Assembly: GCA_046563655.1 (NCBI GenBank)
Contig: CM102286.1
Location: 10,912,001 to 10,976,000, forward strand
DNA from: Yuukianura sp. NJ FZ-2021
Taxonomy: Eukaryota
DNA length: 64,000 bases
Reading direction: 5' to 3'
Every line of letters starts with the position of its first letter. The first letter of the stretch is position 1. This document shows, in pieces, positions 5,792-63,755 of the stretch. The notes beneath the pieces are model-generated. The model searched no databases. It worked only from the letters and a program-made list of their open reading frames with translations, and had not been told where the DNA came from. A program made the position numbers and the translations under genes.

Positions 5792-5792
<1 letters not shown>

Positions 5793-5870: not shown

Positions 5871-5873
<3 letters not shown>

Positions 5874-6184
5874 GCGCATGTATGCCTAGAATCCTTTTAA
5901 AAGCGTTTCTAATTGGGATAGGTGTTCTGTAAAACTCGTATTCATGGTATAGTTGAGTAGTAATTATAAGGAAATAGCTAAATATATCGTGAAATAAAAA
6001 ATATTTTAGTAAATATTTCACTAATTTTTAGTACATATTTACATACATATTTCACTAGTTTTAACAACATATGTTTTGCGGCTCTGGTTATAAAAGAAAA
6101 GTTCATGGAAATTGGAAATTTTACAGGACTGATTCAAGGGGAATGAGTGTTTTGGGACCCTTGGTTTTTAACCTACTTCATAAA

Positions 6185-7639: not shown

Positions 7640-7755
7640 CCGCATAGTAGTTTGCTAACACGAAAAACTTTTTACCTGACCTTTTTTTCTCATTGAAGTA
7701 AAGGAGAAAAAAGAGTCAAGGGAAAAGTTTTTTGTGTTAGCAAACTATTATACGG
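7640..7755. mobile_element. Small fold-back MITE (Tc1/mariner-pogo type, TA-flanked)
   Basis: Imperfect inverted arms of ~50 bp (CCGCATAGTAGTTTGCTAACAC... / ...GTGTTAGCAAACTATTATACGG) with TA on both sides. Confidence 0.7.
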
Positions 7756-9571
7756 TAGTCCCTCTACATCGTCGGGATGAATAGGTAATGGGAAATAAAC
7801 TGACATCAAGTCTATAACACATCGTGAATTTACATGAACCGATTCTAATTTTAACAATAATCGTGCATACCGAGTACAATCAAAAGCCTTTGCGGAAAAA
7901 AGTCAGTCAAAGGTGAACGATTTTTCACTTAGGTTCGACTTTGCCATTTTCAAATAGAGAAAGCTACTTTACAATTCGATTCATGTTTGCATGTCTGTTT
8001 TGGTCAAAATGTTAGAACGATTATATTATGCAATATCCTATGCGGTGTCGATGATATCCACTTTGTCGACTTTTCATTCGCGGCTTGATAACCAGTGAAG
8101 GAGTTAATTGAACGAAATGGATCAATCCAGAGCGGTGGGCTCCACCCGCTGGATTTGAGTAATTTGCAAGAAAAATACTGAAAAAAATAACATAAAAGAA
8201 GAAAAACTAATATAAAGCACAAAAACAAAGGCAACCTCGTTTTCAAGCAATTCGTTAAGCTAAACGCAAGTAAACGTTATAGTTTGTAATTTTCCAATTT
8301 CTATTGTTTTTCAATTTTCGCGCTAAGTTTCAAATTTCTTCCTTTCTTCTACATTTCTACCAGTGCACAACCAGCGGAAGAAATGAGTCTCCTCTCCACG
8401 GAGCGAACCTTTTGTAATTAACTATAGACGAGATTAATCGTAAACGCGAAATTCGCAAATACATTTACCTCTAACCATTTCACTTTTCGTCAAATTAGCA
8501 TGGAATTTAAAGAACTGGAGTCGGTATTTGGTTTTTTTTTTCAAAGATCTTTTTTCTCTCATCTCTGCGATAATCGTTTTTCACTATTCAAGAGGTTGTT
8601 CCATTTTTTGCCGATGTTGGCAGCATGGACTAACCGCACACGCCCGGTTATCGCGGTTACTAAACGACTTGACTGTTGGTAAAATTTACGACGGTTGTTC
8701 ATTGGATGCATACTGTATAGCAGTTGTCTTTAACCGGAAGTTTAAGGGGGGATGGGAGCCAGCGTTTGTTTACGATTTGGTGTCAGCCATTGCCATTAGT
8801 AACAAAGCAAAATCACTGCTCAAACTTGCAAAAGTCGGCACTGTTTCCAACGGTTGACTAATCAAAGTTTTTCGCAGTATAGCAATTCAAACAACTTGGG
8901 ACTCAACAATCAACTTGTATCCATGGAGACGGCTTATTTCAGTGCCGACATTTGCGAATTGCTAAATAATGTCAGAATTACATCTATTTTCTCTTATAAG
9001 TGTCTTACCATAATACCTAAAAATGCGTTTGAGGTGTCTAAAAATCCGGAAGACCATGGCGGACAATGATCAGGGACCAATTTCCCAAATTTTGGTGTCA
9101 TACAATACTTAGACAAAATTGGACTTTGTATCGTATTTTTAGCATCGTTTAGCAGCAAAATATCAAATTCTGACCCCTGATAATTCTTCCTCATGTATCA
9201 ACGAATTTTTGGAGGTATTGTACAAATTGCTACGTCATTCCTGTGAGGACTTATAAGGCCTGGAAGTTAACCAATTTGAGCTGAAACGAGACCCCCCGTT
9301 GGTAAGGGATATGGGTCCTTAATTTAGTGTCGCAAAAAATTTGTACCGTTCGAAAATACCATGTAAGCAATGCACATATACCTAAAGAACTTGGACCCGA
9401 AGTCGTTCTGTAACGCTCTGGTATTGTGAGCTGAGACTTGTAATAGCAAAATTTTACAATAATATTGATAAATAAATTGAAATGGATGAACCAATGGTTA
9501 AAAAAAAGAAAACGGCGGGGAAAAAGTTTGAGTTTTTGAAACGAGTTTTCGTTGAAACGGTCGTTTTATTT

Positions 9572-38395: not shown

Positions 38396-40078
38396 CTAAA
38401 CAGGATGTAGTACCCAAGTGCATGCGTCTACATCCTCTTTGTACGACGGACCTTTCGTAAGTTTTGGAGTCGGAAAATACTTCCATCCCCAACCTGCCCG
38501 TGCCCATGCGTATGACCAATCACGACATACGACTTTACTAGCCTCTCTCGACGTGTCAAACGGACGAAATTTGAATCCGATGCCGCTTTCCCCAATCCCT
38601 TTGGCAGTCCTTATCGGCTGAACTTGCCAATTCAAATTCAGATTCCGTCCTTCCTCTGACGTCAGAAACACTTTGTCGCCACGGCTACCAAGCGTCCAAG
38701 TTCTTTGTGTATCGTCGAACTTTCGGTGGAACCTAAACACCACCGGGTCATTGCACGTTGCAGACACCACTTGAATTTCCCACCTAAAATATTGGAACGA
38801 ATTCGCCCGTTTTAAAATGTATTGTCCAGTTGGTCGAAAACTTAAAACAAAATCCGACGTTACCCGCATTCCGCTGAGGTGACTGTGAAGCCGTTGCCGG
38901 AATTTTTCAGCTCAAGGATTAATTCGTTAGTGTTTTCTAATTTTTCAATGGATACCGGGTACTCCTTCTCACGGATATACATATCGTAGTGAAAATTTCG
39001 GATACATACTGCTTCATTTGAATATAAATTTTGAATTTGGCGCGGAAATTTTTCCATCAGGTTAGACACATTTTGAACTACAGCGTGATGAACCGTGTTT
39101 GCAACCTGGAGCGTATACGTGGACGCCAAGAGCTGTGTTATTTTAAGCTCTTTTAAAACTGCCCTCGTTAACTTGTCAGCCAATGCCGGCTCACGCGTCG
39201 CTAAATTCCACACCGCACACCTGAGATGCAACATATTTTCGTCCCGTTTATGACGCAACATTTCGTATATCACTTCTTCCAAGAAAATTTCCCGCTCGGA
39301 GGTAACCATATTTTCCAAATCAGTTTTGAATTCTTGAAACTTCTGGGTTGACAACTTTTCGATTAGTCCCATCACCCGTTCACGTCTCTGGCGACTCTGT
39401 ATTTTAAATATAATAAAGTAATTTATTAATAAAACGTTGAACTGCAGATTGCAGAATTTCTTTTGACGCATACTGTGATAAGTGTGGAGTTACCTTAATA
39501 TTGGCTTCCAGAGTCACAATTCGTAGCGCAACCTGATCATATTCAAGTTGGAAATCAGCTCCACATGTTTTAGGATTTTGTAAATTGTTTTCCGTTCTTA
39601 AGAACGCCATTCGAGACTTCAGTTTCCCTAGACGCGAGAATTCTTCGTCAAAGTTAGTCAGAAGCTGGGTTCGGAAATTTTGTTGCATTTTATCCAATTC
39701 CAATCCCAATTTATGGATTAGCGCCTGAAGACCAGCCTCAATTTCACCACACTCCTCGGTTGTAGAAAATATTGAAATATCTGTTAGCAGTCGCTCCGTA
39801 ATAGACCCAGTCCAGTTTTTAAAAGTTGCCTCCAAAACTTGCTGTAGTTCATTTTGCCAAAGGGTCAACCGCGGGTGAATGCCCTTAGTATTTTCCGTTC
39901 GGTTTCCTGAAATTTGTTTTTACTTTGCTGAACCACAGTTTACAAAAAAAAACAATATACCTGTTTTTACAACGTTTTATAACCAAGACGGTCTTGACTC
40001 ACCTGATGTGTTACGATTTTCCTGGCAAGTAACCACTACACTTATGAAGATGATGAAAATTTGAAATACGGATGCCAT
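38396..40078 (-). CDS. Secreted helical + putative beta-trefoil protein, paralog A (4 exons)
   Basis: Signal-peptide exon MASVFQIFIIFISVVVTCQ. Shared family motifs FPRQIQNLY...CIRN, ECG|WEI..V....DPVVFRF.RKFDD, NWQVQPI and CTWVL. Confidence 0.8.
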
Positions 40079-40390
40079 TGTTTCTATTGATTCTGTTTGT
40101 CACATTGAGTAGCTTCATACAACTCCAAGTTAATGCAAGTGAATGTGCAAATACTAGAGGTCGCGAGAGGTCAAGCTTGTTATCATTACGACCTTCGTCA
40201 TAATTTATTCTTGGAAAGTATATATGTAATCAAGTTCCAAGAAGTTTCACTACGACGACATTAGAATTCTCAGCAGTCGATAAGACCTATAGCTGGATGT
40301 GCGATTGTACGTATAATAAGTTTTCTTTAGTGATTAATTTTATTTCGAATATAGAATGTAAATTATTTCAGTAAAACAGGATGTTCAAAT

Positions 40391-42611
40391 TTATGGGCGG
40401 ACATTTTTACAGGGTGTTAGAGTCCATGTACATGCGTTTGCGTTTTCTGAACTAGCATACTCAGGCCCACGTGAGAGCAGTAGAGGAGCTTCATAACTGT
40501 AGCGACTAGAATGTGGAGGACCGTGACAAATAAACTTTGAAAAGGTATTCGATGCAGGTGATGGATAAAATTTAAACGCTATTCTGTATCCATATTGAGG
40601 AGAATAAGTTTTAACGACTGAAACTTCCCAATCCAAATTTATATTATAGGTTCCATCTGAGGCCAACATGACTCGATCTGCTTGGCTGGCGAGAGCCCAG
40701 TTCCTTTCGGGGTCATTCACCGTTCGGTGAAACCGAAAAACTACCGGGTCATTGTAATTGCTGCCTCGCACAGATTGAGGAGCCCATCTAAAGTGATATT
40801 TTCAAAATCATAGAAATTTTTTCAGGAACTCATGATTTTTTGAGTTAAAATAAGTTTGGCTAACCCGCATTCATCCTCGGTTACGTTTAATCCATCTGTG
40901 TATTTTCGATCTCGTTTCATTTTAATTTCAATATCTACAGTCCTAATTGCAGATCTTTGGTACCGTGGTGTGCCGGCATATTTCTGCAAGGACGGGTAAT
41001 TTGGCAACATTGCATTTGCATTTTGATGCCATTGTGTGATACTTCTTGCTGTTGTGCTGGGATATCGATTGGAAGGTGTAATGCCTTGAGGTGTTGAGCT
41101 GAAATTTTGATACGGTTGCGTATTTCGCAATGGCGTTTTGAGACTTTGTTGAGATTGTGTAAAATTTGGCGCTGGAGTGCTAGGACTTCTGTATGAATCT
41201 CGTGATTGCGTGCTAGGATTGTCGAACGATGGAGTAAAGGTTTGTGACGACGTCTTCGGACTTTGAAACGTATGTGTAACATCTTGTGACGATGTGCTGC
41301 GATTTTCATATGAATTTGTATATTTGTAACCTTGTGGTGTACTGAGACTTCGAGACGGAGGTGCGAAAGTAGTAGTTGGAAAAACGTCAATGGCTGAAGT
41401 TGAGGTGTATTCTGTAAATGCGGGTTTTATGAGCGGTTCTGACTCGTGGATAAATGCTGAGGAGCCAAAATTTTTAATGCACAACACATCTTTTGAAAAT
41501 AAATTTTGAATTTGGATAGGAAATTCTCTGAGGCGATTTGACGTATGGTGAACCGTGTGCGCCAGCTTAAGCGTGTAAGTTGATTCGAGATAGTGTAATT
41601 CTTCAAGTTTCTTCAAAACTGCGTTGGTAAGAAGCACAGCGTGTTCTGGCGAGTGCTTAGCCAAATTCCATACGGTCCACCGAATATCCTCAAAATTACC
41701 CTGCATGTAGTACGGTTGCGTCCTTAACAATTTGTCTGCTACCTGTTCTAGCAAAACTGTGTTGTCGTCTGTGCTCTGTATCAACGTTGCCGTCACTTCA
41801 GCCAACTTTCGATTTTTCATGTTTCGAATTAATGAGTCGACTACTCTGTCTCTGAATCGACGCTAAAAGGAATTAATACAAAAATATATAATGAATACGA
41901 ATGATTTTGTATGTAAATATTCGAAAAACGAAAACTTGGAATTAGGGATATAGGAAAGGGAGTGTTTAAAAAAAAAATTACAAACGTGGCTGCGAATCTC
42001 GATTTCTAATTTCATTTTTACCGCAAATTCTTCCTCTTTTGTAACAATTCGGGGCGTAAATTGATTATGATAGAATCTGAACCGGTCAAGGCATTTGGAA
42101 GAACCTTCTGAACCACTTTCGGATTTTAGAAATTCGAATCTTGATTTGAGCCGTTGAAATTTGGAGAATTGATTGTCGAGATTCAAATGTTGATTTCCGT
42201 GGAGTTGTTCAAAATCTTTTTTGAGTTTGTCTAGAAGTGTCTCAAGGCCTAATGTCGATTCAGAACAGTCAGAATTTGTAGCGTCATGCTCAAACTTTGA
42301 AATTTGTTCTAACAACTGCTGCGTGATTCGTGTCGTCCAAGCTTTGAAATTTGATTTCAGTAAGTCCTGTTGCTCTTGCTGCCAAATTGTCAACTGCTGC
42401 ACAGTCATGTCAGCCTGTGCTTGGTATCCTAGAGATGAGCAATGTTTTTTAAAACTTTCTTGAAAATAAATTATCCAAATAACTTCTAATATTGAGTTAA
42501 ATCGACTACGCAGGGTAAACCTGCTTCGGTTTTTAAAACAATGTTTACAATACTTTTACCTCGTGTGAACTTGAGCCACAACGTAAACCAAAGGAAATAC
42601 AGAGTTTTCAT
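40391..42611 (-). CDS. Secreted helical + putative beta-trefoil protein, paralog B (with S/T/P/Q-rich insert)
   Basis: Signal exon MKTLYFLWFTLWLKFTRG, the same exon layout as paralog A, and motifs FPIQIQNLF..VLCIKN, DPVVFRFHR..NDPERNWAL and CTWTL. Confidence 0.8.
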
Positions 42612-43208
42612 TTTTATTGTTGGTATGAAACTTGTTTAGCCTGGACTTTTTGTGGAATTAAGTTTAAGACTCAATTTTAGTAATATAACTCAGAAAACTA
42701 AAGTTATTATTGTAACACTTAGAAAATCATCGAGGAGTATGATTGCCACTTGTTCTGCAGAAAAACTTTCAGATAACAGTTTTCCTGGAACTGTTTTTAA
42801 GTTACGGAAGAAAAGGTCATGGGTCAAGAGGGAGATTACTATTTCTCAGTAATAGCCATTGCTCGAACCAAGGTAATCGCTGCATTATTTTTCGAAACCA
42901 AATGCGAGAAATTTTGTTATTACATCAAAATGCTTTAGAAATTGAGACAAGCGTAAATAAACTGAACGAGTGAACTCTTTCTTTCGCGTTATTATTTGTT
43001 AAATTAATTTACATGAAAAATAGTAAAAAAAAAAACATGCCATCTTTATTAATTCGTGTCTTTTAATATTGTAAAACATATACTCTCAACAATAAAACAG
43101 AATAAAGTTTTTTTTTTCTGTTAGGTTCTGTTAGAATCTTAAACAAAGTTAGGTGTTGTTTAAGATCCTTAGATTATTTTTGGTGATATGATTTGTGAAC
43201 GAATTTAA

Positions 43209-44821
43209 TTAAATACTCTCTAACGTCCAATGGCAGTTGACGTCACTCTGTGGGCCAAGACGCAACGATGTCTCCAAAACAGTTGTTTCAGTTTCGTATG
43301 AGTTCATCCCCGACTTTTTAGGTTTTTGACAAAGTGATTTAGTAACTCCAGTAGAAGCGGTTTCAATTTTGAATGCTAGGTCATTTCCGCTTTTTCTAAC
43401 CGGAACAAGTCTCCAATTGAAATTTTCACTTTGAGGCTCAGAACTAATGACGACGCTGTTCCTGTCGCTTCTGCTCAAGCTCCATGTACGTTCGGGGTCA
43501 TCTATCTTTCGCACAATCTTAAAAAGCGTGGTTGAATTGAAGTTTCCGCCAATGGGTTTGATATCCCACCTAAAATTGAAGCATTTGAATTTCTTGCTTT
43601 TGGATTGGATTTTTACTGCGACGAAACTTAATGGATTGTCAAAAAGTTTACATTTGACGTACCCACAGTTTTCAGCTATAATCAAGCCTTCTTCTTTCAC
43701 GGTTGCGACTTCTTGGTCTGCGTCATTGTCCACCGGCCATAGGAACTCCCTTTCTCGAAGGTAAAACTCGCTTTCCTGGTTGCGGATGCATATACCCGTA
43801 GTTCCCCAGAACAAATTTTGAATTTGGTTTGGGAAAGCATTTCGCGTTGCCTGAGATGCTTGACTGACGCGAGAGGCGTAGGCGAGTTGAATCGTACGCG
43901 CAGATGCCAATCCACCAAAGCTTTTTAGTTTGTCTAAAACAAGCTCAGTGAGCAAATCTGTTTGATGCGGCGTCTGAGATCCTAGATGACTTAGGATCCA
44001 GTAGATATGACCAAAATTGGAGTCCATAGCTGCTGAATTTGGAAACAGTTTTTCAATTACTTCGACCAGAAGAAGGTCAAGGTCACTGGGATCTCTTCCA
44101 GTGAGGTCAATGATTGGATCCACATTGTGATTCTGTATGCTTCGTACCAAAAAGTCTATTTCGTTGGGTCTGCTATTTGCCTGACGAAAACGAAGTCAAT
44201 AATGAGAAGTTTTCAAAATTGTTAGAAAAGAATCGTGGAATATGCATTTTTGAGCAGATATTGTTCACAGAATTCTAATTCACCGCGAGTATTATAATAT
44301 TTTACCTTAAGTTGTTCTTCGACATGATAAATTTTCTGCACTACCTTCCCATGGTTGGTCCGAAATTCTCGAATGCAGTTGCTGGCCGCTTCATTTCGTC
44401 CTTCTTCTCCCAAAAACTTTGACCTTGCTTTGAATTTTTCAATTGACCTTAAAAGGTCACCCAGTTCAACGTTACCGCTACCTCCGTTCAAATTTTGTTT
44501 TTCGAAATGAGCGACGTCCTTGTCTAACTTGTTCAAAACTTCTCTCAATCCTACCGTTGTTTCCGCACATTTAATTCCATCTTGAATGTTCAAAATGGAG
44601 GAACTCCAGGTTTTGAAAATATCTTCCTGCCATTGTTTTATAAGAGTTTCGAAATGACCATGTTGATTTTTCTGCCAGTCAGTTGGTTCTACTGCAAACC
44701 CTTCAATTAAAAAAGCGTGTTAAAGCGGCGTTGAAGTAACTTATAAAATTTTAAAAGACAAATATGTTTTACCTGTTTGATGAGTTATTGCAAACAAGAA
44801 AATTCCAAATACAACGATCAT
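43209..44821 (-). CDS. Secreted helical + putative beta-trefoil protein, paralog C
   Basis: Signal exon MIVVFGIFLFAITHQTG and motifs FPNQIQNLFWG...CIRN, WDIKPI...LFKIVRKIDDPERTWSL, WRLVPVRKSGNDLAFKI and CHWTL. Confidence 0.8.
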
Positions 44822-45459
44822 TGTTAGCCGATGTGAAAAACGAGTAAAGCACAAACTGCGCTGCAACTAGTACTAGAGACTGCCTGTTAAGGCTGTGCAA
44901 AATAAAAAAACAGGTCACCGAAGGTCAACTTTTTGTCATTATGTCCTCATCCCCAGCCGTCACGAATTCTGTGATACAGATAAAAACTTTTTCTTAGAAA
45001 CAAATCTGCGCGCTCTCTTCCTGATCGACGCTTGAAAAAAACGTCGAAAAGCATAAGGGATTTGATGAACACATATACAATAAATATGCATCTTAAATAC
45101 AATAAACTTCAACAGGTCTTTCAGTGACTTCTAATATATAGCTTAAACAATCTGACTCTCGTTGTTTTCTACTTGACCTCATTTGACCTTACTCTGGCTC
45201 CACTGGCATAATCTGGAGTACGGCGTTTTTATGCGCCGTAGCCCGAACAAATGTAAAGATTTTGAAATTAAATTTTTGTTTATTTTCGAACTGAAAAGGA
45301 CGCATAGCATTATTTTTTTAACTAAACTTTTGACTAGTTGTGTTTTCGACGTTACATGCAAAAAAAGCCCAAAATTTCAGCTGAAATTTCGGAAGATTTT
45401 AAAGTTTCGATGCTATGCCTTCAATGGTACAACAGATTTGAGGGACAAAACCTAAAACC

Positions 45460-47056
45460 TTACGTCAGACTTCGGACAGGAAATAGTTTAAACTTCATTC
45501 TCTGTTCAGCAACACTTCCAAACCACAAGTGATTCCTCTCTGAAATGTCTGCCACTTCTGCATCGAATTTAGTGACAAACTGTTTTACTAATATTTTTAA
45601 AATGTTTGTTGAAACATTTCTGCCTGGACATGCATGTACGCCGGCACCCCACAACCACAGTAGCTTAGGATCCATCTTTTCTGGATTATCGTCACGCATG
45701 AACCGCTCCGGGTTGTAATGCTGCGCATGTTCAAAAATGTCATTTCCCGGTTCCATTTCAAAAAGAAGCGCCCCAGGGACTGCTACCACGTCCACGTCTC
45801 CTACATAGTATGGACCAACTACCGAGTTTGCATGAGGACTACGAACACTGACGATTCCATTGCCATTTAAACGCATGCCTTCTATCACGCAGGCATGTAG
45901 AAGCTTGTTTCGTAGAGTTTCATCTATACTTGCTCCGCCCAACTCTTCTCGTAGTTGACGCCACAGATCCGAACGACTAGTTAATTCTTTTAAAATTTGA
46001 GAAGCTGATGACAGTGGTGAGGAAAGGACTTGGAAGTGCGTGGTGAGCAAGATTTCGCAAACTTCTTGTGCGGATAACTTCTGAGGGCCTTTTGCAGTCT
46101 CGCGAGGAGTATCGATCGTTGCCCGAATCAATCTGGATTCTTGCATACTCACATTATCTATATACGTTTGCACGAATGGCAACATGGCTTCCACGTACCG
46201 CTTCCTAAAGTAAACAGTAATGCGATGGAAAGTGTACTCAACAAACGTTGCTGGTAGAATGTTGCTCGCGAAGGCTGTTAGTATCATCCAATAGTAGAAG
46301 GAATCGTAGGACTGTGAAATGTCTGGCGTCATTGGAAAGGCAAACATTGCTTTAAAAATGGCTCTCACGTACGTTCGGCGCATGATGTCTTTGATGTTCA
46401 CTGCAAAGGAGTTCTTGTCTTTTAGTACATTTTGTTTAAGCTCTTCAATCGTTGCGTCCATTTCGTCGTTAACAACTTCTAAGAATTCCGACATGTGCGA
46501 GACAAAGACCTTCTTGATCAGTAACTTCATATGCTCCGCAGCATTGTACAGCTCATCTGAAAAAGCTCGACTAATGCCAGCATTGTCAACGTACTTGTAA
46601 AAGGAAAGTTGTTTTTCAGCGGAGCTGAAGTACTTATTAATCAGCTCTCGGTTACACAATACGGTCATTTTTGTTGGGCCAAGTTTTATGGTAAATATTT
46701 CTCCATAGCGCTTGTAGCAGGAGAAAAGGAAGCCTTTAGGATCAGAGGTCATGCTAATTAAGTGGCCAATTAACGGGATCCAGGAAAATACTGTAGGGAC
46801 GATTTTCAGTTTGGATTGTGTAAAACTATCGCTGTTTCGCTGTCGCTGAAATTTTCTTGCTTGATGAACCACAAGTGCGAAAATTACTACCAGAAATGAG
46901 GCTTCCAAGTACCTAAAAATAACAATTAGGTTAAATGGAAGCTAATGCTGAAAGAGTCGACTGAAATTAAATAAACTAATAAAACGAAATAAAAATTAGC
47001 TGCCGAAATTAGCGCTTTGGGGGTAATTTGTTTCTTCAAAAATTGTGAACTTACAT
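45460..47056 (-). CDS. Cytochrome P450 with CYP51/CYP7-like features; essentially single coding exon
   Basis: N-terminal membrane anchor, WIPLIGH...DPKGFL...YKRYGEIFTIKLG, EGMR (ExxR), YNPERF and the heme motif WGAGVHACPG. The open frame spans 45460-46912. Confidence 0.93.
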
Positions 47057-47749: not shown

Positions 47750-48670
47750 CAAAATAAACCGTTGTAAACGCCGTACGTAAGTAGCGAAAGGAAGCTAGTG
47801 ACAACCCGGAAATTGTCGACTTCCGGTCAAACCGGAGCCGTATTAATCACCCCCAGGCTATGATAAACTGATTTGCAAGCCAGATTGCAAATCGGTCCAA
47901 TGGTGTCGAGGGTATAGTTAGTTCTAGTGCAGACAGACAGACAGGCAGACAGACAGACAGACTCGGTGGAAAACACAAAGTAGGTCATACTTTCCTGAGT
48001 AGGACGAGGGGCGCCATTTCGAAACTTAAATTGTCAGTATCTCTGGAACCGTAGGTCAAAGGTCAAGGTCACCTATACAAAAGTTGTTCGTCTCGATGAG
48101 ATGAACAACTTTTGTAAGGGTCATTTTCCCGATTTCCGTCAAAAATGTATTTGACCTTGACCTTTGACCCGGACCTGGACAACTTCCGGTCAAGCTGGAC
48201 ACCGATTACACACCCCTGGAACATGTGAAGCGCAACTGTGAAGGCAGACTGAAAATCGGTCCAGTGGTTCTGGAGTTATAGACGCGAATATCATGAACTA
48301 CGCCATTATACAACTTCTAAGGTCTATATCTTCAGAACCCCAGATCAAAGGTCAAGGTCACCTATACAAAAGTTGCTCGTCTCGATGAGATGAACAACTT
48401 TTGTATGAGTCATTTTCCCGATTTCCGTCAAAAAAGTATTTGACCTTGACCTTTGACCCTTAGGGGGTCGACTTCCGGTCAAACCGGGCACCGATTGTTT
48501 ACCCCCAGACCATGTCAAGTTCATCTGTGAAGACAGATTGGAAATCGGTCCAGCGGTTCCAGAGGTAGCTTGACCAGCAGACGGACGGACAGACGGACGG
48601 ACGGACGGACAGACAGACAGACAGACTCGGGGAAAAACATAAAGTAGCTCATACTTTCGCTACTTAATAA
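47750..48670. mobile_element. Helentron-associated (DINE-1/HINE-like) non-autonomous element with internal duplications
   Basis: 13-bp subterminal inverted repeat TAAGTAGCGAAAG (47778-47790) / CTTTCGCTACTTA (48654-48666), (GACA/GACG)n tracts at ~47930-47962 and ~48578-48626, and a ~115-bp block repeated at ~48055-48170 and ~48345-48460 containing a palindrome. Confidence 0.7.
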
Positions 48671-48784
48671 TCTTAGTAAGATCTCTTTAAGTTGAAACCA
48701 TTTTAGCGTGCCTTTAAATTTGAAATATTGTGGTAACGATAAAGTTAAAACTTATTATGCATTATGTCTTGACGGGGTTAAAAA

Positions 48785-50445
48785 TCAGAGAATCCGTTCT
48801 AAAATCCAGTTGCAAGCATTGTGGCCTTCCGACGGAATCTGGAGGCTGACAGGAAAGCGAGATTGTCCAGACGCAGTACTGTTGCCCGCTGAGTGCTGGC
48901 AGAGAGACCTTTGTGAAGGCTCTCCAAAATTGAAAGTGAAACTGATATCTGCGGTGTTGTATGCGTTTTCGCGAACTGGCGTCTGTGTAATGGAGAAAAC
49001 GGGATTAACGGTCCAAGCTATTTTTTCATCAGATGACCTGGAACTGAGAACAACGGAAGATCCACCCTTTGTAGCTAACCCAAAGTGTTTCTCTGGGTCA
49101 TCCACCTTTCGTTCCAGTCGGAACTTGAGGTCATGTCCACTCTCCAACGGTAGTAAAATCCAACTTTACAAAACGAAACAAGTAAAATAAAGTTGATAAA
49201 GCATTCTCAATAAATGTTTTACTCACCCGCATAATTCCTCCATTCGGTTAAGTGATTCTCCACGAAGTACCACGACTTCCAGTGGTACGTCCAAATTGTC
49301 ATTGTTGTTTCTGGTGGAGCCTGGGTAAAATACTTCCCGCAAATACATACCATTTCTAAAATTCTTTATGCAAAGCACTCTTCCCCAGATTAGGTTTTGA
49401 ATTTGAAGTGGGAACTTTTGCTTGATTTCTTGTGAAACGTCGAATCGGCGAGCCAATGACGCAAGTCTAATAGTGAATTGTGATGTGATGAGATTGAAAG
49501 ACGACAATTTGGCTAGTGTGCTGTTCACCACACTGTCTGTAAGACGGCGATCGTGACCTCCGAACTCGGTTAAAAACCAAACGATTTTTGGAAAGCCTCT
49601 CGTGAATGCTCCGGCAGTAGAAGAAATGTCGTTCAAAACGGATTCGATCAAAAAAACCAGTTCGTCCGTATCGTCAACGTCACGAATCACTGCACGCGTT
49701 ATATCCGAATCTCCGAGTCCGATGCCCTGTACAAGCAGCTCCAAGTGCTCTTTTCGAGCAGAGTCCTAAAAAAATTACTAATTTTACTAAAAATTACAGG
49801 ACTCCAATCACTCCTAGTCAAAAGCATTTTTATCATAAAAAAGAGAATCGAACCAGCGACTACGTTCACGTTCACGTACCTTAACCCCTCCTTCAAATTG
49901 TCTAATCTTGTTTTGAAGACTAGCATAACTTGTGTTAAACGCATCTCGACATCTACTTGGACCTTCCGTGACCCACTCTTCTCGTAAAAAATTTGCACGG
50001 GTTTTGATGGCTTCCAGTTGACTTAACGTGGAGGTGGGATTCGCACCAGTGCTTCTTCCCCGGCTGATCACTTCGACTGCTTCGGCATCAATCTTGCGAA
50101 GTAGTGCATTAATTCCTACAGTACTCTTGGGGCATGCGTTGGCTTCTGGATTCTGCGCAATGAGAGTCAGAATGTCCCTGAGTCCCGGTTGAGCCTCAAC
50201 TCGGCTCGTCCATTCTCTAAACAGTGAGTCCAACTTGGAGCGCTGTTCGGTTTCATTAAGAGGTGCAGATCCTGTGTTCAAAAAATTGAGATTTACAAAC
50301 AGAAAGTCTTTCGCACATGATTTTTAATTACAATTAATTACCAAACGATAGTTTTACAAATTACTAAAGTTTTACACTCACCTGAATTTCCTCTTACTTG
50401 TTTCAACACTTGCAAAATCAATATGATTGATACTAAATTTCTCAT
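48785..50445 (-). CDS. Secreted helical + putative beta-trefoil protein, paralog D
   Basis: Signal exon MRNLVSIILILQVLKQVRG and motifs C..STVGINALLRKID, FPLQIQNLIWGRVLCIKN, LCG|W, RKVDDPEK, AWTVNPV, SLCQ and CNWIL. Confidence 0.8.
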
Positions 50446-51348: not shown

Positions 51349-54300
51349 ATGGGATACGCTGCTGTTCGTAGAGTGCTTATATTTTTGGCCGTGTGGCTTT
51401 CCGCTTCGGCTTATGCAGCAGATATTGGTTTGGTAAGCAATCCATTCTTGTGCCAATTCTTTAATTGATAAGTCAAAGCACTGAAAATCATGCGCAGTTT
51501 CTAACTTCCTTTTTTAAAGATTGGCGGATCAGACGCAGAATCGGAGAGCTATATTGTTATTGCTCCTAAGAATATTTTGCCAGCATCCAACTATACGATT
51601 TTCGTGAGCGCCAACCCGCTTCAACCCGCAGACGCTGTTTGCCACCTTTACGTAGAAGTCCAGTGTCACTTGATTCGCGCCGGCGCAGACGCAAACGCAA
51701 GGCTCTTTACGCAGTCGCTAGGCAACTTCACCCTGAGATCGACCGATTCTCAAAGAGCTACTGGATTTATCCCTCGATTCATCGTTTCTGAAAACTACAA
51801 CCATTGTTTCCTTATCTTGAAAAACAAAGAAAATGGAGAAGAATTTGAGCGACGTGACCTTGTACTGTCTTCTACACAAAACAACATTGCAGGGTCAAAG
51901 GTTCTTATTCAGCTGAACAAACCGGCATACAAACCACTGGATATCGTACGCATCCGAATTATTGTGCTCAACAAATACAATCTTCCTGACATGGATCCTC
52001 AAAATATCAAAGTAAAAAGGAAAATTTCAATACATAAAGTAATATTCCAAGTTATTAGGTTGATTAATTCACTGACATGTCGTTGGAATTATTAAGGTGA
52101 CATTTAGTGACCCCAATGGCGTCAACATGAAACGGTGGCCCAACAACCGTGACAACATTACCATGGATCAGAACGGACTCATAAATCTCGACCTCCCATT
52201 AGCCGACGAGCTTGTCTACGGTAAAAAAGAATTTTTTTTTAAGAAAATTTTTAAATTTTCAAATCATCACAAAACTAATGTGATGATTTCGATGCTTTAA
52301 AACAGGAACGTGGAAAATAGACGTTAGTGCCAACGGTCAGAATGTAACCAAGGATTTTTTGATTGAACGCTACGTCCTACCCAAATTCTTCCTGAAATTT
52401 GTTGTTGGTCCAAAGCCGTACATTACCAAAGACACGACAACAATTACCGTTGATGTCCACGCCATGTACACGTACAAGAGGGCATTGAATGGACGTGTAA
52501 AACTAACGCTCCTGAATCCGAAAAGTCCAAATACAAACACTACAAGAACCGTTGAACTAAATAATGGACAAGGCGCTTTTACGTTTCATCCGGTCAACGA
52601 CCTCGGGAGAAACCTGGTAACAGAGGGGGTTGAATTGCAACTCCACGCTAACGTGTCGGAAGCCCGAACTGGTCGATCCCAAACGACAATTCATCCAATC
52701 CCGGTATTTGCTGGTGATCCATTCAGAATTACTTGGCTCAACCCAGCTAGATTTTACAAACCGGGGATTCCAGTTGACATTCAAGTCGCAATTTCCAACT
52801 ACGACAACATGCCCGTCGTTGACTCTGCGGCAGACGCCATCAAACTGATTTCCAAGGTCACTGCAGGCACAACTCTACAAAGAACAAGTTTGCCAATTTT
52901 GTTAAATGGAATCGTAACGTTTCGACTCCGGTTGCCTCCTGCAGGTCAAACTTTCGAGTCCATCAAAGTCCATTACAAAAATATAATACTGAATATTCCT
53001 CCTCCGCAACAAGTGCTATCAGATCAACCAACGGATATTTACCTACATCCGACCCTGGAGGCGAAACCGGAGGAATTGCAAAGAGGAAGCAGCATTCGTG
53101 TCAAAATTGAATCTACGAAAAAAATTTCAAATCCAAAGGTCAACTACATTCTGTGGAGCGGGCGTGAAATTGTGGGATTCCGTACTGGACTGGCACTAGA
53201 GAATGGTGGAATCAGCGTATATCTTCCAAGTGACGAGACTTATGCACAACTGAAACTCATCGTATATGTTCATTTGGACACTGGAAAGGATTCCGAAAAG
53301 TAAGTTTCAATTCATACGTTAGAACTTGGAACGATTCGTTTGCATTTTGAAAAAAGAAATATTTTGTTAGAATGCGAAGTTAATTGTGTAAATTGATTTC
53401 AGAATTATTTCTGGCACCCTTCGAATTCCCACCAATAATTACTTGAAAATGCGTCTTGGAGCTACCACGGTAGAACCCGGTACGAATCAATCAATTACTT
53501 TCGAGACACATCCTGAGTCCACAATCGCCATTCGTGGAGTGGACCAGTCTCTTCAACTTTTGTCCCGTGACAAGGGTGTCAATGATATCTCTCCAGCGGA
53601 TGTACCTTTCAATCCGTTTTACCACACTTACCGTGAAGACGGTTCTTCCAGAACCACCGCTGATTCGTACTCTGATTTTGAAGAATCAGACCTTCTCCTT
53701 CTCACGAACTCAAATCAAACGCAAGGAAGATCCAGAAGACACGTTTCGTTCCAGCGGGCATCAAGATCACTTCCCATAGCTGCTGGATATCGACCTACTT
53801 TGTCCGACTACACTCACTACGATGGACCGATACGAACAAGATCACATTTTCCTGAGGCGTGGCTATGGGAACAAATGTTGGCATCGGACTTTACAACGGA
53901 ACACTCCAAGAGAATTCCAGTAGTTCCGGACACAATAACATCTTGGTATGTTACTGCCCTGTCACTCAACGCCAGAAGTGGATTGGCAGTGACTCAGGCA
54001 CCGTCACTGCTCACCGTCTTTAGACCATTCTTCATCACCCTGAACTTGCCATATTCCGTTCCCCAGGGAGAGCAATTCGAACTCCAAGTTCTGATTCACA
54101 ATTATCTTGAGAACCCAGTTCTAACTCGTGTCACCTTCTTCAACGATCAGAGCAACATTCGGTTTATTGATTCCAGGTGAGTTAAACTGTTCCTATTTCC
54201 CTGTAAAAAATATAAGTTGTATTCAGAAATGCATTTATTCTAATGTATTTGATATATTTTACTAGGGAGAGGGCCATGGAAAATGTATCGAGGCTCGTTA

Positions 54301-56695
54301 CTGTCGAGAGGGCGACCGTCGGAACCGTGAGGTAAATGTTGCTTTTTGAGTGTCTTTCACAAGGTTGGTAAACAAAAAAAAACTTTTTCTACACCAGGTG
54401 GTACAATAACTGATGAAAGTTTTAAAATTTGTCTGAAACAAAAATCTGTATTTCTATCGTAATTTTTGCATTTAATGTGAATGGGATTTGTGCACAGTAA
54501 GATTTTTGGAAACCCTGAGGTATTGGACAACCTGTTGTAGGAAATACAATTTGTTGTATTTCGGTTGTCAAGGAACCTTGGTCTTTCATTTCCACGCCTT
54601 CGGGAAATGATATCCTTATCACCTTATCCTAATATAGACTGCTCGTGTAAAGTTATGCAATAAATTCAAATTTACAAATTCTATTATATTTGCAGCTTTG
54701 TCATAATGCCAATTGTCGCTGGTGACATTCCACTTCATCTGGAAGCAGTAGCGGACGTTGCAGGGGACGCCATTATTCAAACCATGCGTGTCGAAATTCC
54801 TGGAGTTAGAAATTGGAACCTGGTCAAGACACAGCTCTATGACGGCCTTACAACAACGCACACAGAGAAGTACACCATTCAGCGAAAACGAACCAAACGA
54901 GGCATCCAACACAAGTTGACGTTATCTGGAAATCCTGTGGCAGACAGCACGGCAATCCTTGATGGCCAGCACAACGTGTCCGGTATGGTCATTCTTCCAA
55001 CCGGTTGTGGAGAGCAGAATATGCGAGGATTTGCTCGGAACATAATGGCACTCGAGTGGTTACGAGCTAACCACATAGATGATCCAGTACTGGAAAGCAA
55101 AGCAAAGAGGCATTTGGAAACGGGCTATCAGAAGCAAATAACTTTCCGTCAAGTGAATGACGGGTCGTTCCGCTACTATCCAAGCGCCAACCAAGACGCA
55201 ACTTGGCTCACAGCCTACGTTCTACGATGTCTCACTGCAGCAAGAAAGTACATCACCATTGACGACAATGTCATACTCAACGGTCTTCAGTTTCTTCTTA
55301 AACAGCAGAATGCCGTTACAGGTCAATTCGCCGGCACAGGCGCACCAACGCAGTACGGAGCACAGCTACAAGGCATGCGCAGTTCAACATCAATAAGCTA
55401 TGGGCTCACAGCCTACGTAACACTCGCAATCATCGAAATTACGGCCGAGATGTCTAGTCAGTTGAGTCGGACAGACAAGATTCGGTATGATGCTGCGAAA
55501 AATAAGGGCCTCACGTACATTTCCTCTGAAAGCAGTCTTATGGATACGGATCTCTACAACCTCATACTCGTGACGACTACGTTAGCAGCAGCCAATCACC
55601 CCAGTCGCAAAACGTTTTTTGACAAAATGGTACGAGCAGGGAAAACTAAGCCAGACAAAAACGTCAAATGGTGGGAAATGGCTCCAGAACAGACTCCGAG
55701 TGCTCTTACGATAGAAATGACTGCGTATGCTCTCTTAGCTCATTTATGGATGAACCAAGAAACGGCCAGTGACAGTACACCGATCGTCCTTTGGCTTCTG
55801 GAACAGAAAAAGGAGAATGGAGGATTTCTTACGACGCAGGATACCGTGGTGGCTTTTAACGCACTTTCTAAATATGCCCAAAGAACAGTTTCTGGAAGCT
55901 ATCAGAGTGATGCAGTAACCATCGACGTGTTGAACAAAGACGATCTTCTAAAAAGAGTCGTTCTCAATAGAACAACGCGAGATGCTCCACTAGAATTTGT
56001 ACTTCCAGCATTTTTAGAAGACAACGAATTCACCATTAACGTAACAGGAAAGGGCAAGGCTTATATTCAGTACGCCGAATTGTTCCACAACGAAAGGATT
56101 GCCAACACAACAAACTTCTACGACATAACTGGCATGGTACAGTTTTTAAATATATTAACATTAATCAGTTTAACTTACTAATTGATTATACAGAATTCCA
56201 GAAATGACACGAAATGTAAATTTACATAAAATATTTTGTGTTTTCCAGTTGACAAAGGTCAACGACTCTAACAAAGACGACGTCTTTGATTTTGAGCTCT
56301 GTCTGCAACTACGCAATCGCTCATTCGATGCAAGCCAACAAGTCATTGCAGAAATTAAGCTACCGACTGGATTTCAATTCGAGCGGGAAATTCTCGACCT
56401 CGTAACTCCCATCAAGTACAGAAAAAATAACACCGTTGAGAAAATTGAACTCCAGGGCAAGGGAACGAAAGCAGTTATTTACTATACACATTTGAATTTT
56501 CCGAAACAATGTCTCCAATTGCCAGTCCATATCTACATTAAGTCAACAACTCGCTACACTGGAACAGTTCGTGTAACAGATTACTACAATCCTCAAGTCA
56601 CGGACACATCTACAATATTTCCAGACAGAACAATGACAGTGTGCGATATCTGTCTCGTTAGTGGAGGATGCGATGTCATTTCAGGGTGTATTTAA
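51349..56695 (+). CDS. Thioester-containing protein (TEP / CD109 / alpha-2-macroglobulin family), multi-exon
   Basis: Signal peptide MGYAAVRRVLIFLAVWLSASAYA, IQLNKPAYKP, RYVLPKF, VDQSL, RSHFPEAWLW, VPDTITSW, FRPFFITLNLPYSV, thioester GCGEQ (55003-55017), WLTAYV, IEMTAYALL, GGFLTTQDTVVA and a receptor-binding domain with DYYNP. Confidence 0.95.
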
Positions 56696-57012: not shown

Positions 57013-58927
57013 TTATGAGTCGTCAGCTGCCTTCTTTTTCGGAGCTATGCGACCTTTGCCTCCGTGCATTTTCGACATCATGTGTTGATTTAGGTAGTCC
57101 TTGAGCTTGAATACTTTCCCGCATAAAGCACACTCGTGACATTCTTTGGCGTAGAACCCTGTGGTAGGCCTCACTCCATGCTTAGCAGCCAAATGTCGTC
57201 GTAGTGACATGGCTTCGAAGAAACTGTCGCCGCAGTAGTTACACAGTTCGGATTTTACACCAGAATGTTTTAGAACGTGACTCCGTAGACTTTTCCTACT
57301 CATGAACATCTTGTTGCAAACATTACACTCAAAACTTTTCTGTCTAGTCTTATCGTGCGTCGTTATATGCTTCTTTAATTCACTCTTGCTTGCGAATGCT
57401 TTACCACAAATTTCACAAATGACGTCCCGGATGCCCTCGTGTACTGTTTTAATATGAACTTGCAATGTCCTCTTGTCACATAACCACTTCCCGCAAAACT
57501 CACAAGGACAACGCTCATCTTCGCTCGCATGACGCTTTTGGCGATGAATGTCGAGGTAATTCTTGGTTGGAAACCTTCTCCCGCAACCCTCCACTTCACA
57601 TTGAAACGGTTTCTCTGTACCGTGAACTGTAACTTGATGCAATCTGAGACGGCTTTTCGTTTCAAAAGTTTTGTCGCAAACAGAACAACAACGACCTACC
57701 AGGTCTTTAGCGGTTAACCCCTGACCATGCTTGTATTTCAAATGCCACCGATACCTCGCGCGTCGGGGATAAATTTTTCCACACACTTCGCATTTAAAAG
57801 TTGGTTTTTCATCGTGAACAGATATCATGTGTCGCCTGAATTTCTCTTCTGAAGTAAACGAAGTTTCACACTTGTGTGGGCAAACCAACGGTTCTGCTGT
57901 CATGTTTGGTTGATGAGAATTTTGTGCAGATTCCTCAGACGGGTCCTCGATAGTTAAAGAACAGGCACTTGGAGATTGGCAAACGGTGCTATCCTGAACG
58001 TTCCTCTCCGTTGTTTCGTCAATAAAGTTTGTAATGGCTGATGTTGAATCGGTTGAGATTCGAATAGAAGTAGGCGCCTTCTTAATTTTCCGAACATTAT
58101 TTTGTTTCATACCTGAATAAAGTGATTCAGATTGTTTTAGATTCACTAGTTTAACGCTTCCCTTGTATGATTGAAGATAAAGTATAAGTATAACCTTTTA
58201 ATTTGATTATTCTCGTTTTTCGTGTTGCACGACGCAGTAGTACTTCGCCTCCGGGTAATAATGGGTCTGATAGAGGATCAAGTTCAATGGAGAAAGGCGC
58301 ATCTTCTTCTTTAATTATAGGAAAGTTGACTTCAACCTCAGCAGACTCCAACTTCACGTGTACTGGAGGTAAGTCTTGGAAAGGATCATCTGAATGCGTT
58401 ACAAAGGACGACCAGAGAATGGAAGTCTCCAGAAGCGTCTGGACATAAGACCCCTCAACGGTTAGAGTCATAAATTTTTTGTAAGCCGTATTCAATGTGG
58501 TTAGCGCCGACAAGCATTGGAAACACATCAGCAATCGACAATCGGGTGGCACCAGCTTCTAAAAAAATACAAAACCGCTTTTAACAAAATGAAAAATCCA
58601 TTTGTTTCATTTGTGAAATCGCTGAAAACTGAAGCTTACTTTATGTAACTTGAGACTTGCTTCAAATACTGTTGAAATTGCATCCGAAATCGAAACATCT
58701 TGGATACTTTCCTGTTGTCCGGCGCATGCCTCTTCACTTTCGGAGTTACGAACCAAAAATATACTGCAATGGTCGCCGCCACTGATGTTCCCATTTTCAT
58801 TAGGCAGTGCAGTCAAGACCCTTCTGCAGTTAGCACAAGGCATTGCGTTGGTAGAATTTATTTCCTGGTTACGAGTGCGATCCAGGAGTGTCGTAGTACT
58901 GTTATTGTTCGCATCTGTGATCAGCAC
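57013..58927 (-). CDS. C2H2 zinc-finger protein with N-terminal ZAD-like C4 domain (copy 1)
   Basis: About 9 C2H2 fingers in the last exon. CANC and CFQC pairs lie in the two preceding exons. The 5' end is uncertain. Confidence 0.88.
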
Positions 58928-61773: not shown

Positions 61774-63755
61774 TCAAGCAACAGATTCCCTCCTTTTCTG
61801 TGCAGTGTGCCCTTTACCTCCATGCGTCTTCGACCTTTGGTGTTGTCTGAGGTATTCCTTCAACTTGAACACTTTCCCACATTGCGAACATTCGTGACAT
61901 TCGTTTGCGTCAGGACCAGTCGCAGGCCTGACTCCATGCTTAGCAACCAAGTGCCGTCGGAGGGATACCGTCTGCAGGAAAGTATCGCCGCAGTAGTTGC
62001 ACTGCTTTACACCAGAATGTTGTTGCAAACGATGACCTCGCAAACTCCTCGCACTGATGAACAGCTTGTTGCACACCGTACATTGAAAACATTTTTGTCG
62101 AGACTTGTCATGCGATTCCATGTGTACCACTAGCTCACTTCTGGTTGTGAATGCCTTACCACAAATCTCACAAATAACGTCACGAATCCCGTCATGTACT
62201 GCCTTCACATGCATTCGTAGTTTGTTCTTGTCACGTAACAATTTACCGCATATCTCACAAGGACAACGGTCATTTGCCTTCGTATGCTGGTATAGGCGAT
62301 GAATGTCGAGGTAATTTTTCGTTGGAAACTTTCTTGCGCAACCCTCCACTTCACACTCAAACGGTTTCTCTGTACTGTGAACCGAAATTTGATGCGTTTT
62401 GAGTTGACTCTTAGTTCCAAAAACTTTAGGACAGTCAGGACAACTACGACCTTCAAGGTCATCAGAGGTTAATCCATGACCGTGCTTGTACTTCAAATGT
62501 CTCCGGTATTCCGTGCCTCGTTGATAACTTTTACCGCACTCTTCGCAAGTGAAACTCGGGGTTTCACCGTGTACGGACTTCAAATGTTCCGTGAATCTCG
62601 CTTCTGAAGGAAACGAGGTTTCGCAGTTGTGAGGACAAAGTAATGGCTCTTTCAGTTTGGTTGGTTCTGAGGAATTCTGTGCGGATTCGGCAGAGTGGTG
62701 CTTGACAGTTAAAGAATTGGCACTCGCAGATTCATGGTCCGCACAGTTCTCTTCCAAGTTTAGAGAACGTTTGATATCTTCCTTTGTCCGTCTACGTTCC
62801 AACTCTTTCTTAGCAACATTTTTCTTGACTGATCTTCTGTTATCTTTAGGCGGGATTTGTCTGGAAGTGGTGACATTCTTCCTCAGGTTAACCTTATTTC
62901 GTACCGCACCTGAACAAAGTTATTATATAAATGTTTGGTAAGTGTATTTGGCTTAAGCTTTTTCTAATTGTTAATTCTTCAAGTTTTGTCTTATAATATC
63001 ACCTTTCAATTTGTTTGTTCGCATTTTTCGCCTTGAAAGCCGGAGATGAGCTTCGTCTTCCGACGAGGTATATGATATATGGAGCTGATCCATCACAAAA
63101 GATGAATCCTCTTCCTTAATTACCGGAAAATCGGTGTCATGTTCATCCGTTTCCACCTTCACATTTACTACTGCCGAGTCGTCGTTCAGTAAAGGATCAG
63201 ATTCAAAATCCCGAGTTGCTGCAAATGACGACCATAGAATGGAACTTCTCAACAGCTTCTGGATGTATGAGCCGCCGACAGTCAGCTTCATAAACTTGAT
63301 GTAGGTTGCATTCAAACTAGTTAGCGCGGAGAGGCATTGAAAACACATCAGCAATCGACAATTGGATGGCACTTGCTTCTAAGAAAAAATTGATAAAAAG
63401 AAAAACTATTATTTTGAACAAAAATAAAATTAACTCAGTCGATTAGTGATTCCAGACTTCTTACACTTACTTTATGTAACTTGAGATTTGCCTCAAATAC
63501 GGTTGATATCATGACGGAAATCGGAATATCTCGGATAGGTTCCTCTTGTCCGACGCAGGGCTCATTTTCCGCATTACGTAACAAAAATATACTGCAATCG
63601 TCTCCGCCATTGATGTTTCCATCTTCATTAGGCAGTGCAGTCAAGACCCTTCTGCAATTGGCGCAAGGCATCGCTGTTGTCTGTAATTGATTTTGCCAGA
63701 TTACTGCCCGTGCCCTGCGTATCGCTCAATCCTGGTAAACTGCAATTCGCTTCCC
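61774..63755 (-). CDS. C2H2 zinc-finger protein with N-terminal ZAD-like C4 domain (copy 2)
   Basis: Clear paralog of 57013-58927 with the same exon layout (MPCANCRRVLTALPNE, CRLLMCFQCLSALT, FPTKNYLDIHR, RDVICEICGKAF). The 5' end is uncertain. Confidence 0.88.

Follow-up and report, generated by a model that had tools for sequence, protein, structure and literature searches.

Structure of the P450 gene

The window analyzed in this work is a stretch of 64,000 nucleotides from Yuukianura sp. NJ FZ-2021 (GenBank assembly GCA_046563655.1, contig CM102286.1, positions 10,912,001 to 10,976,000), and all coordinates refer to it. Its minus strand encodes, between positions 45460 and 46912, a complete cytochrome P450 in which the motifs of the heme site are kept. 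The Pfam p450 profile (PF00067) matches residues 49–465 over profile positions 1–438 of 462, with an E-value of 8e-28 and 97.8 bits (cut-off 22.8). The gene and its protein comprise the following elements:

47055..47056, minus strand: last two bases of exon 1 (AT), the first two bases of the predicted start codon, in the context TAG AAA AT/GTAAGT
46913..47054, minus strand: phase-2 intron of 142 nucleotides, predicted from the sequence, GTAAGT ... TTGTTATTTTTAG, G+C content (GC) 0.30
45460..46912, minus strand: exon 2: last base of the start codon (G), followed by 483 codons and closed by the TAA stop at 45460–45462
46864..46911, minus strand: N-terminal hydrophobic membrane anchor, residues 2–17 (modeled helix, residues 2–30)
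46762–46782, minus strand: PLIGH motif, after the basic stretch behind the anchor
46006..46050, minus strand: I-helix core LLTTHFQVLSSPLSS, residues 289–303, located by alignment columns
45871..45882, minus strand: K-helix ExxR (E345-G-M-R348), with E and R invariant in the family alignments
45700..45711, minus strand: PERF motif, residues 402–405, located by alignment
45616..45657, minus strand: heme-binding loop WLWGAGVHACPGRN, residues 420–433, with Cys429 as the predicted thiolate ligand
45279..45284, minus strand: candidate polyadenylation signal AATAAA, from the position of the motif, 178 nucleotides past the first base of the stop codon

The stop-to-stop open frame comprises 493 codons (45460–46941) and holds no in-frame ATG before residue 64, which led us to place the start further upstream. 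The 142-nucleotide GT-AG intron appears to interrupt the start ATG; its sites follow the spliceosomal consensus and would read AT/GTAAGT ... TTGTTATTTTTAG/G TAC TTG, with TTTTTAG/G as the acceptor. An in-frame TAG is located two codons upstream of the split ATG, and the predicted N-terminus aligns with the membrane anchors of related proteins. The product of this gene model has 484 residues.

A preliminary description of the locus, made from the sequence alone, had reported a P450 gene without internal introns. This is correct for the body of the coding sequence, where the exon stays open through 483 codons up to the stop, and the end coordinate then given, 46912, coincides with the first base of exon 2 behind the acceptor; it does not extend to the start, where the intron is predicted. 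The accompanying statement that neighboring genes have introns every few hundred bases was too strong. The window holds 29 open frames that reach 150 residues or more; five of them, besides that of the P450, are 381–505 residues long, and a coding exon of 1.45 kb is therefore not exceptional in this region.

Relatives of the P450 in giant viruses and soil arthropods

A HMMER search of the whole library of 1.84 billion cluster representatives returned 477 proteins at E ≤ 1e-3, of which 36 reach E ≤ 1e-30. The best match is P0004 (453 residues, 34% identity, E 6e-89), followed by the fragments P0005 (45% identity), P0008 (40%), and P0064 (44%). Four other sequences among all representatives share the odd I-helix of the window protein and constitute with it a small group, hereafter the window clade. 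The next block of matches shows identities of 23–29% and E-values from 1e-45 to 1e-30. Many of these proteins are longer than a P450: 15 of the 24 matches that were scanned exceed 630 residues, and ten of the 15 match the AlkB-like 2-oxoglutarate (2OG)-Fe(II) domain PF13532 at E ≤ 1e-3, albeit below its curated cut-off of 31.2 bits in all cases except P0033 (32.8 bits).

The named members of this family are mostly viral. A word-index search with the fused member P0006 listed 90 proteins, seven of them from named giant viruses, klosneuviruses included (Acanthamoeba polyphaga mimivirus, Moumouvirus goulette, Borely moumouvirus, Cotonvirus japonicus, Harvfovirus, Hyperionvirus, and Fadolivirus). 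Other named members come from the springtail Folsomia candida (P0176, 730 residues, on a 10.8-Mb contig) and from the mite Dinothrombium tinctorium (P0211), and two further labeled members are protist-transcriptome entries. The Dinothrombium protein is encoded on a contig of 6.4 kb, which could represent viral contamination. The viral relatives, such as the mimivirus protein P0203, carry the automatic annotation "putative lanosterol 14-alpha demethylase"; the mimivirus-type P450 is presumably the one named CYP5253 or L808. The preliminary description had proposed giant-virus sequences as one of several comparisons, and it is among them that the nearest relatives outside the window clade are found. 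The Fadolivirus protein matches with 159 bits, compared with 46 bits for human CYP51, 29 for CYP8B1, and 28 for CYP24A1, which are the best named metazoan chains in the PDB. With tblastn against the window, P0176 and P0211 reach 162 and 138 bits, respectively.

The window protein and the giant-virus family have in common the N-terminal membrane anchor followed by PLIGH, a heme loop with Trp, with His at position Cys-2 and with C-P-G, and the absence of the B'-helix motif of CYP51. In the heme loop of the viral family, T-W-G-x-G-x-H-x-C-P-G-K, the window protein keeps W, G, H, and C-P-G, with Leu in place of Thr and Arg in place of Lys, and a further Trp precedes this W by two residues (WLW). 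The near-invariant SSENT of the viral I-helix (L-L-Y-V-S-S-E-N-T) is replaced by LSSP. In addition, the C-terminal AlkB-like 2OG domain of the viral family is absent from the window protein, which ends about 55 residues past the Cys loop. This domain is not universal in the family, since Fadolivirus P0010, with 479 residues, also lacks it. P450 families are delimited at about 40% identity, and the identity between the window protein and the viral proteins is far below this value; the gene further differs from the viral ones by its host-like GC and its predicted intron.

The fused P450–2OG form is present on two giant-virus contigs of the IMG/VR database, of 1.02 Mb and 113 kb. On the larger one (L003), the fused gene (3932–6115, plus strand) converges on an ERG4/ERG24 sterol reductase gene (6452–7789, minus strand; E 1.5e-83) across a gap of 336 nucleotides. 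This arrangement is found in one of the two viral loci; at the other (L004), genes with FNIP repeats lie beside the fused P450 instead. No relative was retrieved when IMG/VR was scanned with the alignments A2 (window clade) and A1 or with P0021 and P0066 as individual queries, and a scan with alignment A5 returned only the two contigs already found.

Two metagenome contigs carry members of the window clade. On L001 (4.3 kb), the P0008 gene occupies positions 1–1449 and has no intron; its product is about 40% identical to the window protein. The remaining 2.8 kb lack long open frames and in this resemble eukaryotic DNA. The P0008 frame is broken once, near residue 243 (about 720–730), which may reflect an assembly error or a pseudogene. 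On L002 (1.5 kb), the similarity starts at about residue 237 behind a TTGCAG acceptor-like site (1047–1475), and no P450 similarity is found in the preceding 1 kb, an arrangement suggestive of an internal intron in the L002 gene. The opposite strand of L002 carries a frame that, judged by eye, resembles a GMC oxidoreductase.

Phylogenetic position of the window clade

In a quick tree of 85 rows, built without distant outgroups, the window protein groups with P0004, P0005, and P0008 (Shimodaira–Hasegawa-like approximate likelihood ratio test (SH-aLRT) 100) inside a clade of 57 rows (98) to which every protein with a heme loop of the Trp type belongs, along with every viral protein that has a name. 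A careful tree, comprising 58 rows and rooted on two CYP4V2 and three plant P450s as outgroups, was calculated under LG+C20+F+G4 by the posterior mean site frequency approach, with ultrafast bootstrap and SH-aLRT values. In this tree the window clade (100/100) joins a crown of 24 rows (100/96) in a group of 28 rows (100/99). The crown contains all the rows from named viruses, Folsomia, Dinothrombium, and eukprot. Moving outward from this group, the tree shows a six-row Trp-type group (97/87), fungal-type rows (96/89), a further group, and then the rows with the CYP51 signature together with bacterial CYP51-like rows, while the CYP4V2 rows fall with the outgroup. The window clade is thus placed as the sister of the giant-virus P450 family and not within it, and the whole assemblage is placed in the CYP51-like part of the P450 superfamily. 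Profile comparison is consistent with this position: in hhalign, the profile of the window clade aligns to that of the viral family with a score of 494 (E 3e-65) and to that of CYP51 with a score of 321 (E 3e-43).

The earliest branches of the crown (P0021, P0042, and P0043) and the basal Trp-type group (P0066 and others) consist of unfused proteins of 440–480 residues. For this reason, the simplest reading is that the window lineage split off before the fusion with the 2OG domain. The Folsomia and Dinothrombium proteins occupy a different position, as they nest inside the viral crown and keep both SSENT and the 2OG domain, whereas the window gene is separate, diverged, and unfused. It might nevertheless be a derived copy of a fused gene of the Folsomia type that lost its 2OG domain and evolved fast, being then drawn to the base of the family by long-branch attraction. 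Such a gene does reside on a contig of 10.8 Mb in Folsomia, the stem of the window clade is long (0.89 changes per column), and an approximately unbiased (AU) test of a grouping of the window clade with P0176 and P0024 does not clearly reject it (p 0.064). However, the free tree is better by 53.4 log-likelihood units, the unfused state of the basal crown and of the Trp-type groups makes an origin before the fusion simpler, and tblastn with 80 C-terminal domains detected no 2OG remnant in the window at E < 0.01, the only match below this threshold being a second P450 domain. We therefore regard a derivation from a fused copy as quite improbable.

Comparison with CYP51, clan 7, and the standard animal clans

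The standard P450 clans of arthropods are clans 2, 3, 4, 16, 20, and the mitochondrial clan. Among the 36 matches at E ≤ 1e-30, we found no protein with the canonical F..G.R.C.G loop and no recognizable member of a standard animal clan. Within the PDB, CYP24A1, CYP17A1, CYP1A2, and CYP2A6 match at 9e-6 or weaker, so that the vertebrate P450s of clans 2 and 3 and of the mitochondrial clan in this comparison set, which is without arthropod references, remain at E ≥ 9e-6 as against 4.5e-19 for CYP51.

The nearest solved structures are indeed those of CYP51 (6q2c, 3l4d, and human 6q2t and 3ld6), both by sequence and by fold. The best sequence match in the PDB is obtusifoliol 14-alpha-demethylase (6q2c), which HMMER aligns over residues 41–464 with about 22% identity and an E-value of 4.5e-19. 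An AlphaFold2 model of the protein, built on an alignment of 59 rows, has a mean predicted local distance difference test score of 93.7 and a predicted template modeling score of 0.91. Compared with the PDB by Foldseek, it retrieves only P450s as top matches, and almost all of the best 50 are CYP51 chains (template modeling (TM) score normalized to the query 0.65–0.77, to the target up to 0.83; identity 14–18%), with CYP3A5 at rank 49. The region PLIGH..DP..F....Y.KYG.IFT near the N-terminus and the His at Cys-2 are also similar to CYP51.

A true, if diverged, CYP51, or else an enzyme of the CYP7/CYP8 type, could account for these matches and would be in line with the lanosterol demethylase label of the viral relatives; a prostacyclin synthase cluster, moreover, is one of the three nearest in the ESM Atlas (score 0.98). 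The CYP51 family is characterized by the motifs Y..F/L..P.FG..V.YD, in the B'-helix, and (A/G)GQHTS, in the I-helix, both of which are visible in the three CYP51-signature rows of our alignment. Neither is found in the window protein. The B'-helix and B'/C-loop signature (FG..V.YD) is absent and the segment is shorter by a deletion of four to five residues, as in the whole Trp-type family, while FQVLSSP stands where CYP51 has FAGQHTS. The heme loop has Trp, unlike the Phe of CYP51, and the identity to CYP51 chains is limited to 14–22%. In the careful tree, the AU test rejects a grouping of the window clade with the CYP51 rows (difference in log-likelihood 79.5, p 0.0011). As for clan 7 (CYP7, CYP8, CYP39, and prostacyclin synthase), CYP8B1 and prostacyclin synthase match only the C-terminal 70–90 residues (E 2.7e-6 and 3.5e-6), and no member appears among the 50 best fold matches. 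Prostacyclin synthase, CYP8A1, has a Trp in its heme loop and is not known to carry a canonical acid–alcohol pair. The two candidate identities were largely rejected, and we consider it very improbable that the gene belongs to either. By these sequence comparisons the gene is neither a CYP51 nor a clan 7 member, nor recognizably one of a standard animal clan.

These results bear on several points of the preliminary description. The gene indeed appears foreign to the standard animal clans, and CYP51s are its nearest solved relatives. The CYP51 likeness that had been noted at the N-terminus is borne out by the alignment to 6q2c, but the CYP7/CYP8 likeness proposed with it reduces to the faint C-terminal match (about 3e-6). 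A CYP51-type identity, which the quick tree had not rejected, is contradicted by the missing signatures and by the AU test.

Heme loop and I-helix

The strings previously quoted for the I-helix and the heme loop, TTHFQVLSSPLSS and WGAGVHACPG, are present within 46006–46050 and 45616–45657, respectively. In the heme loop, Trp422 occupies the position usually taken by Phe and His427 is located at Cys-2; W, H, and C-P-G do not vary in the family alignment A1. A loop of the form (T/N)-W-G/S-x-G-x-H-x-C-P-G-K/R is found in 27 of the 30 rows from the crown and the basal group, and Phe takes the Trp position in the three remaining crown rows, in CYP51, and in all outgroups. The initial W of the heme motif, correctly read before, is therefore a hallmark of the giant-virus-type family rather than a peculiarity of this gene.

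The I-helix, on the other hand, sets the window clade apart. It is continuous in the model (residues 281–311 in the numbering of the folded 483-residue sequence) and contains Ser298-Ser299-Pro300 where the giant-virus family has E-N-T, the canonical motif is D/E-T-T, and CYP51 has H-T-S. The same columns read T-T-P, A-T-P, and S-I-P in the other members of the clade. Hence, the acid is missing in all four rows of the clade, and a hydroxyl is kept at the canonical Thr position in three of them. A Pro one residue past that position and a His five residues before it are specific to the clade. In the crown, E-N-T is present in 20 of 24 rows, within S-S-E-N-T or a sequence close to it, and a further two rows carry E-N-S. 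From the alignment, the loss of E-N-T, here replaced by S-S-P, is specific to the window clade. The earlier observation of an I-helix without the acid–alcohol motif is accurate as regards the acid and the E-N-T of the family, both lost, but the hydroxyl stays in place in the form of Ser299.

Genomic context and host integration

The P450 gene is embedded in a tandem array of a multi-exon orphan gene, whose four copies A–D (38396–44719 and 49223–50323) are all encoded on the minus strand, as is the P450. The preliminary description had placed it within what it took to be an array of secreted proteins, and its position inside an array is confirmed: it lies between the paralogs C and D, at 740 nucleotides from copy C. 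The features on either side are:

43209..44719, minus strand: copy C of the orphan array, two open frames, paralogous to A, B, and D (E 1e-7 to 1e-25)
48345–48659, minus strand, and 48696–49190, plus strand: two low-complexity open frames between the P450 and copy D, with no Pfam family
49223..50323, minus strand: copy D of the orphan array, upstream of the P450, identified by paralogy

The two low-complexity frames may be remains of mobile elements with relevance to the arrival of the P450 in the array. The base composition of the P450 (GC 0.43, GC at third codon positions (GC3) 0.44) is that of its surroundings, since eight neighboring coding stretches range from 0.42 to 0.46 and from 0.37 to 0.46, respectively. 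Two viral homologs have a GC of 0.30–0.34 and a GC3 of 0.18–0.28.

The viral nature of the nearest named relatives, and the frame break in the relative on L001, could raise the suspicion of contamination, misassembly, or a decaying pseudogene. Host paralogs nevertheless flank the gene on both sides and on the same strand, its composition matches the neighbors and differs from the viral genes, it has a predicted intron of spliceosomal consensus, and its 483 codons are open with all the catalytic-core motifs kept. We consider an artifact or a decaying gene extremely improbable: the gene is intact and integrated in the host genome.

Origin of the gene

Taken together, the data describe an intact and integrated gene for a membrane-anchored P450 of 484 residues, whose lineage is sister to a giant-virus family and which was most likely acquired horizontally and then remodeled, a reading that we hold with moderate confidence. 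An ancestral arthropod would have gained the gene by horizontal transfer, either from a giant virus or from the donor that the viruses themselves drew upon, and this acquisition would have taken place before, or without, the C-terminal fusion to the AlkB-like 2OG domain. Since then, the gene would have taken on the base composition of the host and gained an intron at its 5' end, and the E-N-T of the I-helix would have been replaced by S-S-P with every heme-binding element kept. The horizontal acquisition put forward in the preliminary description is the best reading because of the narrow distribution of the window clade, the viral and soil-arthropod labels of the named members of its sister family, and the high load of foreign genes in springtails; its direction and timing we infer. 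For Folsomia candida, the part of PMC5490193 that covers this subject reports 809 foreign genes (2.8%), derived from bacteria, fungi, and protists. Any transfer must be old, given the host-like composition and the intron.

Several observations weigh against this reading. The window clade is sister to the named viral proteins and does not lie among them, so that the tree leaves the direction of transfer open. Taxon labels are available for few rows, as the four closest relatives, most of the crown, and the basal Trp-type group carry none. The quick tree did not reject a grouping with 11 CYP51-group rows (difference in log-likelihood 8.6, p 0.42), and in the careful tree the grouping with Folsomia P0176 and P0024 was not clearly rejected either. 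Host-like composition and an intron fit a native gene as well as they fit an old transfer. Neither viral genes flanking the P450, sought by Pfam, nor a 2OG remnant, sought by tblastn, were found in the window. Finally, according to the part of PMC11814380 devoted to them, the P450 genes of giant viruses could be linked to no known host, which means that the viruses may themselves be recipients.

Some of these observations would be expected if the gene had been inherited vertically, as an old eukaryotic paralog of the CYP51 clan that was kept here and lost in other animals, with the giant viruses having captured a cousin of it elsewhere. The position of the window clade beside the viral crown, the host-like composition, the predicted 5' intron and possibly a further one in the relative on L002, the fungal P450s as next outgroups, and the unsettled origin of the giant-virus genes would all be compatible with such a relict. 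It would, however, require loss in nearly all other animals; the clade has only four other members among the 1.84 billion representatives, and the named proteins that separate the window gene from CYP51 are all viral, fungal, or from soil microarthropods. We judge vertical descent rather unlikely and retain horizontal acquisition as the preferred explanation.

The fused viral family, and the automatic "lanosterol demethylase" label in Folsomia, are already public. In the literature searched, outside of which stand Lamb et al. 2019 and Dermauw et al. 2020, we found no description of an unfused, intron-bearing animal lineage with an altered I-helix, nor any paper that joins mimivirus, P450, and "lanosterol 14". 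In their main texts, the genome papers on Folsomia, Orchesella, and trombidid mites are silent on a P450 of this kind, and three supplements of PMC5490193 contain no match for lanosterol, P450, or virus.

The presence in an animal genome of a diverged sister lineage provides an outgroup for dating and rooting the P450 family of giant viruses. It also points to gene flow between the giant-virus pool and soil microarthropods beyond the fused copies of Folsomia and a mite. The exchange of E-N-T for S-S-P with the heme site kept constitutes a natural experiment on the I-helix. For arthropod biology, it would add a P450 lineage outside the usual clans to a group in which, by the portion of PMC5490193 on foreign genes, horizontal gene uptake is heavy.

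Predicted function

The protein is probably a P450 anchored in the endoplasmic reticulum (ER) that works with the host reductase on a lipophilic substrate. The N-terminal helix would hold it in the ER membrane, the P450 reductase of the host would supply the electrons, and the substrate to be oxidized would be lipophilic and possibly sterol-like. Two observations point to a sterol-like substrate, namely the CYP51-like fold and the presence of a sterol reductase gene next to one viral homolog; we put it forward tentatively, as less likely than not. Such a substrate would be noteworthy in an animal that is auxotrophic for sterols, as a passage of PMC8984297 describes.

The loss of the I-helix acid suggests that proton delivery is altered. 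As this residue is missing, protons would have to reach the bound oxygen through Ser299 and water, or through the substrate. By a rough estimate, the protein has about an even chance of being a working monooxygenase. An enzyme of the peroxide or shunt type is unlikely, and a non-catalytic protein appears slightly less likely again. In CYP8A and CYP74, peroxides are rearranged by an oxygen-independent mechanism. A similar rearrangement in the window protein is possible but unsupported, and the window clade lacks an Asn at the position relevant to the CYP8A/CYP74-type mechanism.

In its most far-reaching form, the proposal would be that an enzyme of a giant virus, or of its donor, entered a springtail ancestor and became a domesticated P450 of a new family. 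It would have acquired an intron and given up the oxygen-activation motif of the viral family, and its present role would be in the handling of dietary (fungal) sterols or related lipids by a sterol-auxotrophic animal. The chance that all of these steps are correct is small. If they were, this would represent a rare giant-virus-to-animal transfer of a working metabolic gene, and the animal would offer a tractable handle on the chemistry of the viral P450s.

Other genes of the window

The copies of the orphan array belong to no Pfam family and share a motif Q-I-Q-N-L...C-I-(R/K)-N. For the last exon of copy C, the ESM Atlas gives sub-threshold hints (0.79–0.83) of beta-trefoil families (ricin-type lectin, CDT-A/C, and inhibitor I66). 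The outer neighbors are, by Pfam, ordinary animal genes: a TEP/alpha-2-macroglobulin, C2H2 zinc fingers, a K2P channel, a UAA transporter, and a SAP-domain gene. The following features complete the description of the window:

51505–56695, plus strand: gene of the TEP/alpha-2-macroglobulin type, at least five large exons, with matches to MG3, MG4, and TED and the thioester motif GCGEQNM
57013–58197 and 61774–62919, minus strand: two single-exon genes, paralogous to each other, for C2H2 zinc-finger proteins of about 390 residues with a near-identical finger layout
227–748, minus strand: retroelement gag-like open frame, judged by eye

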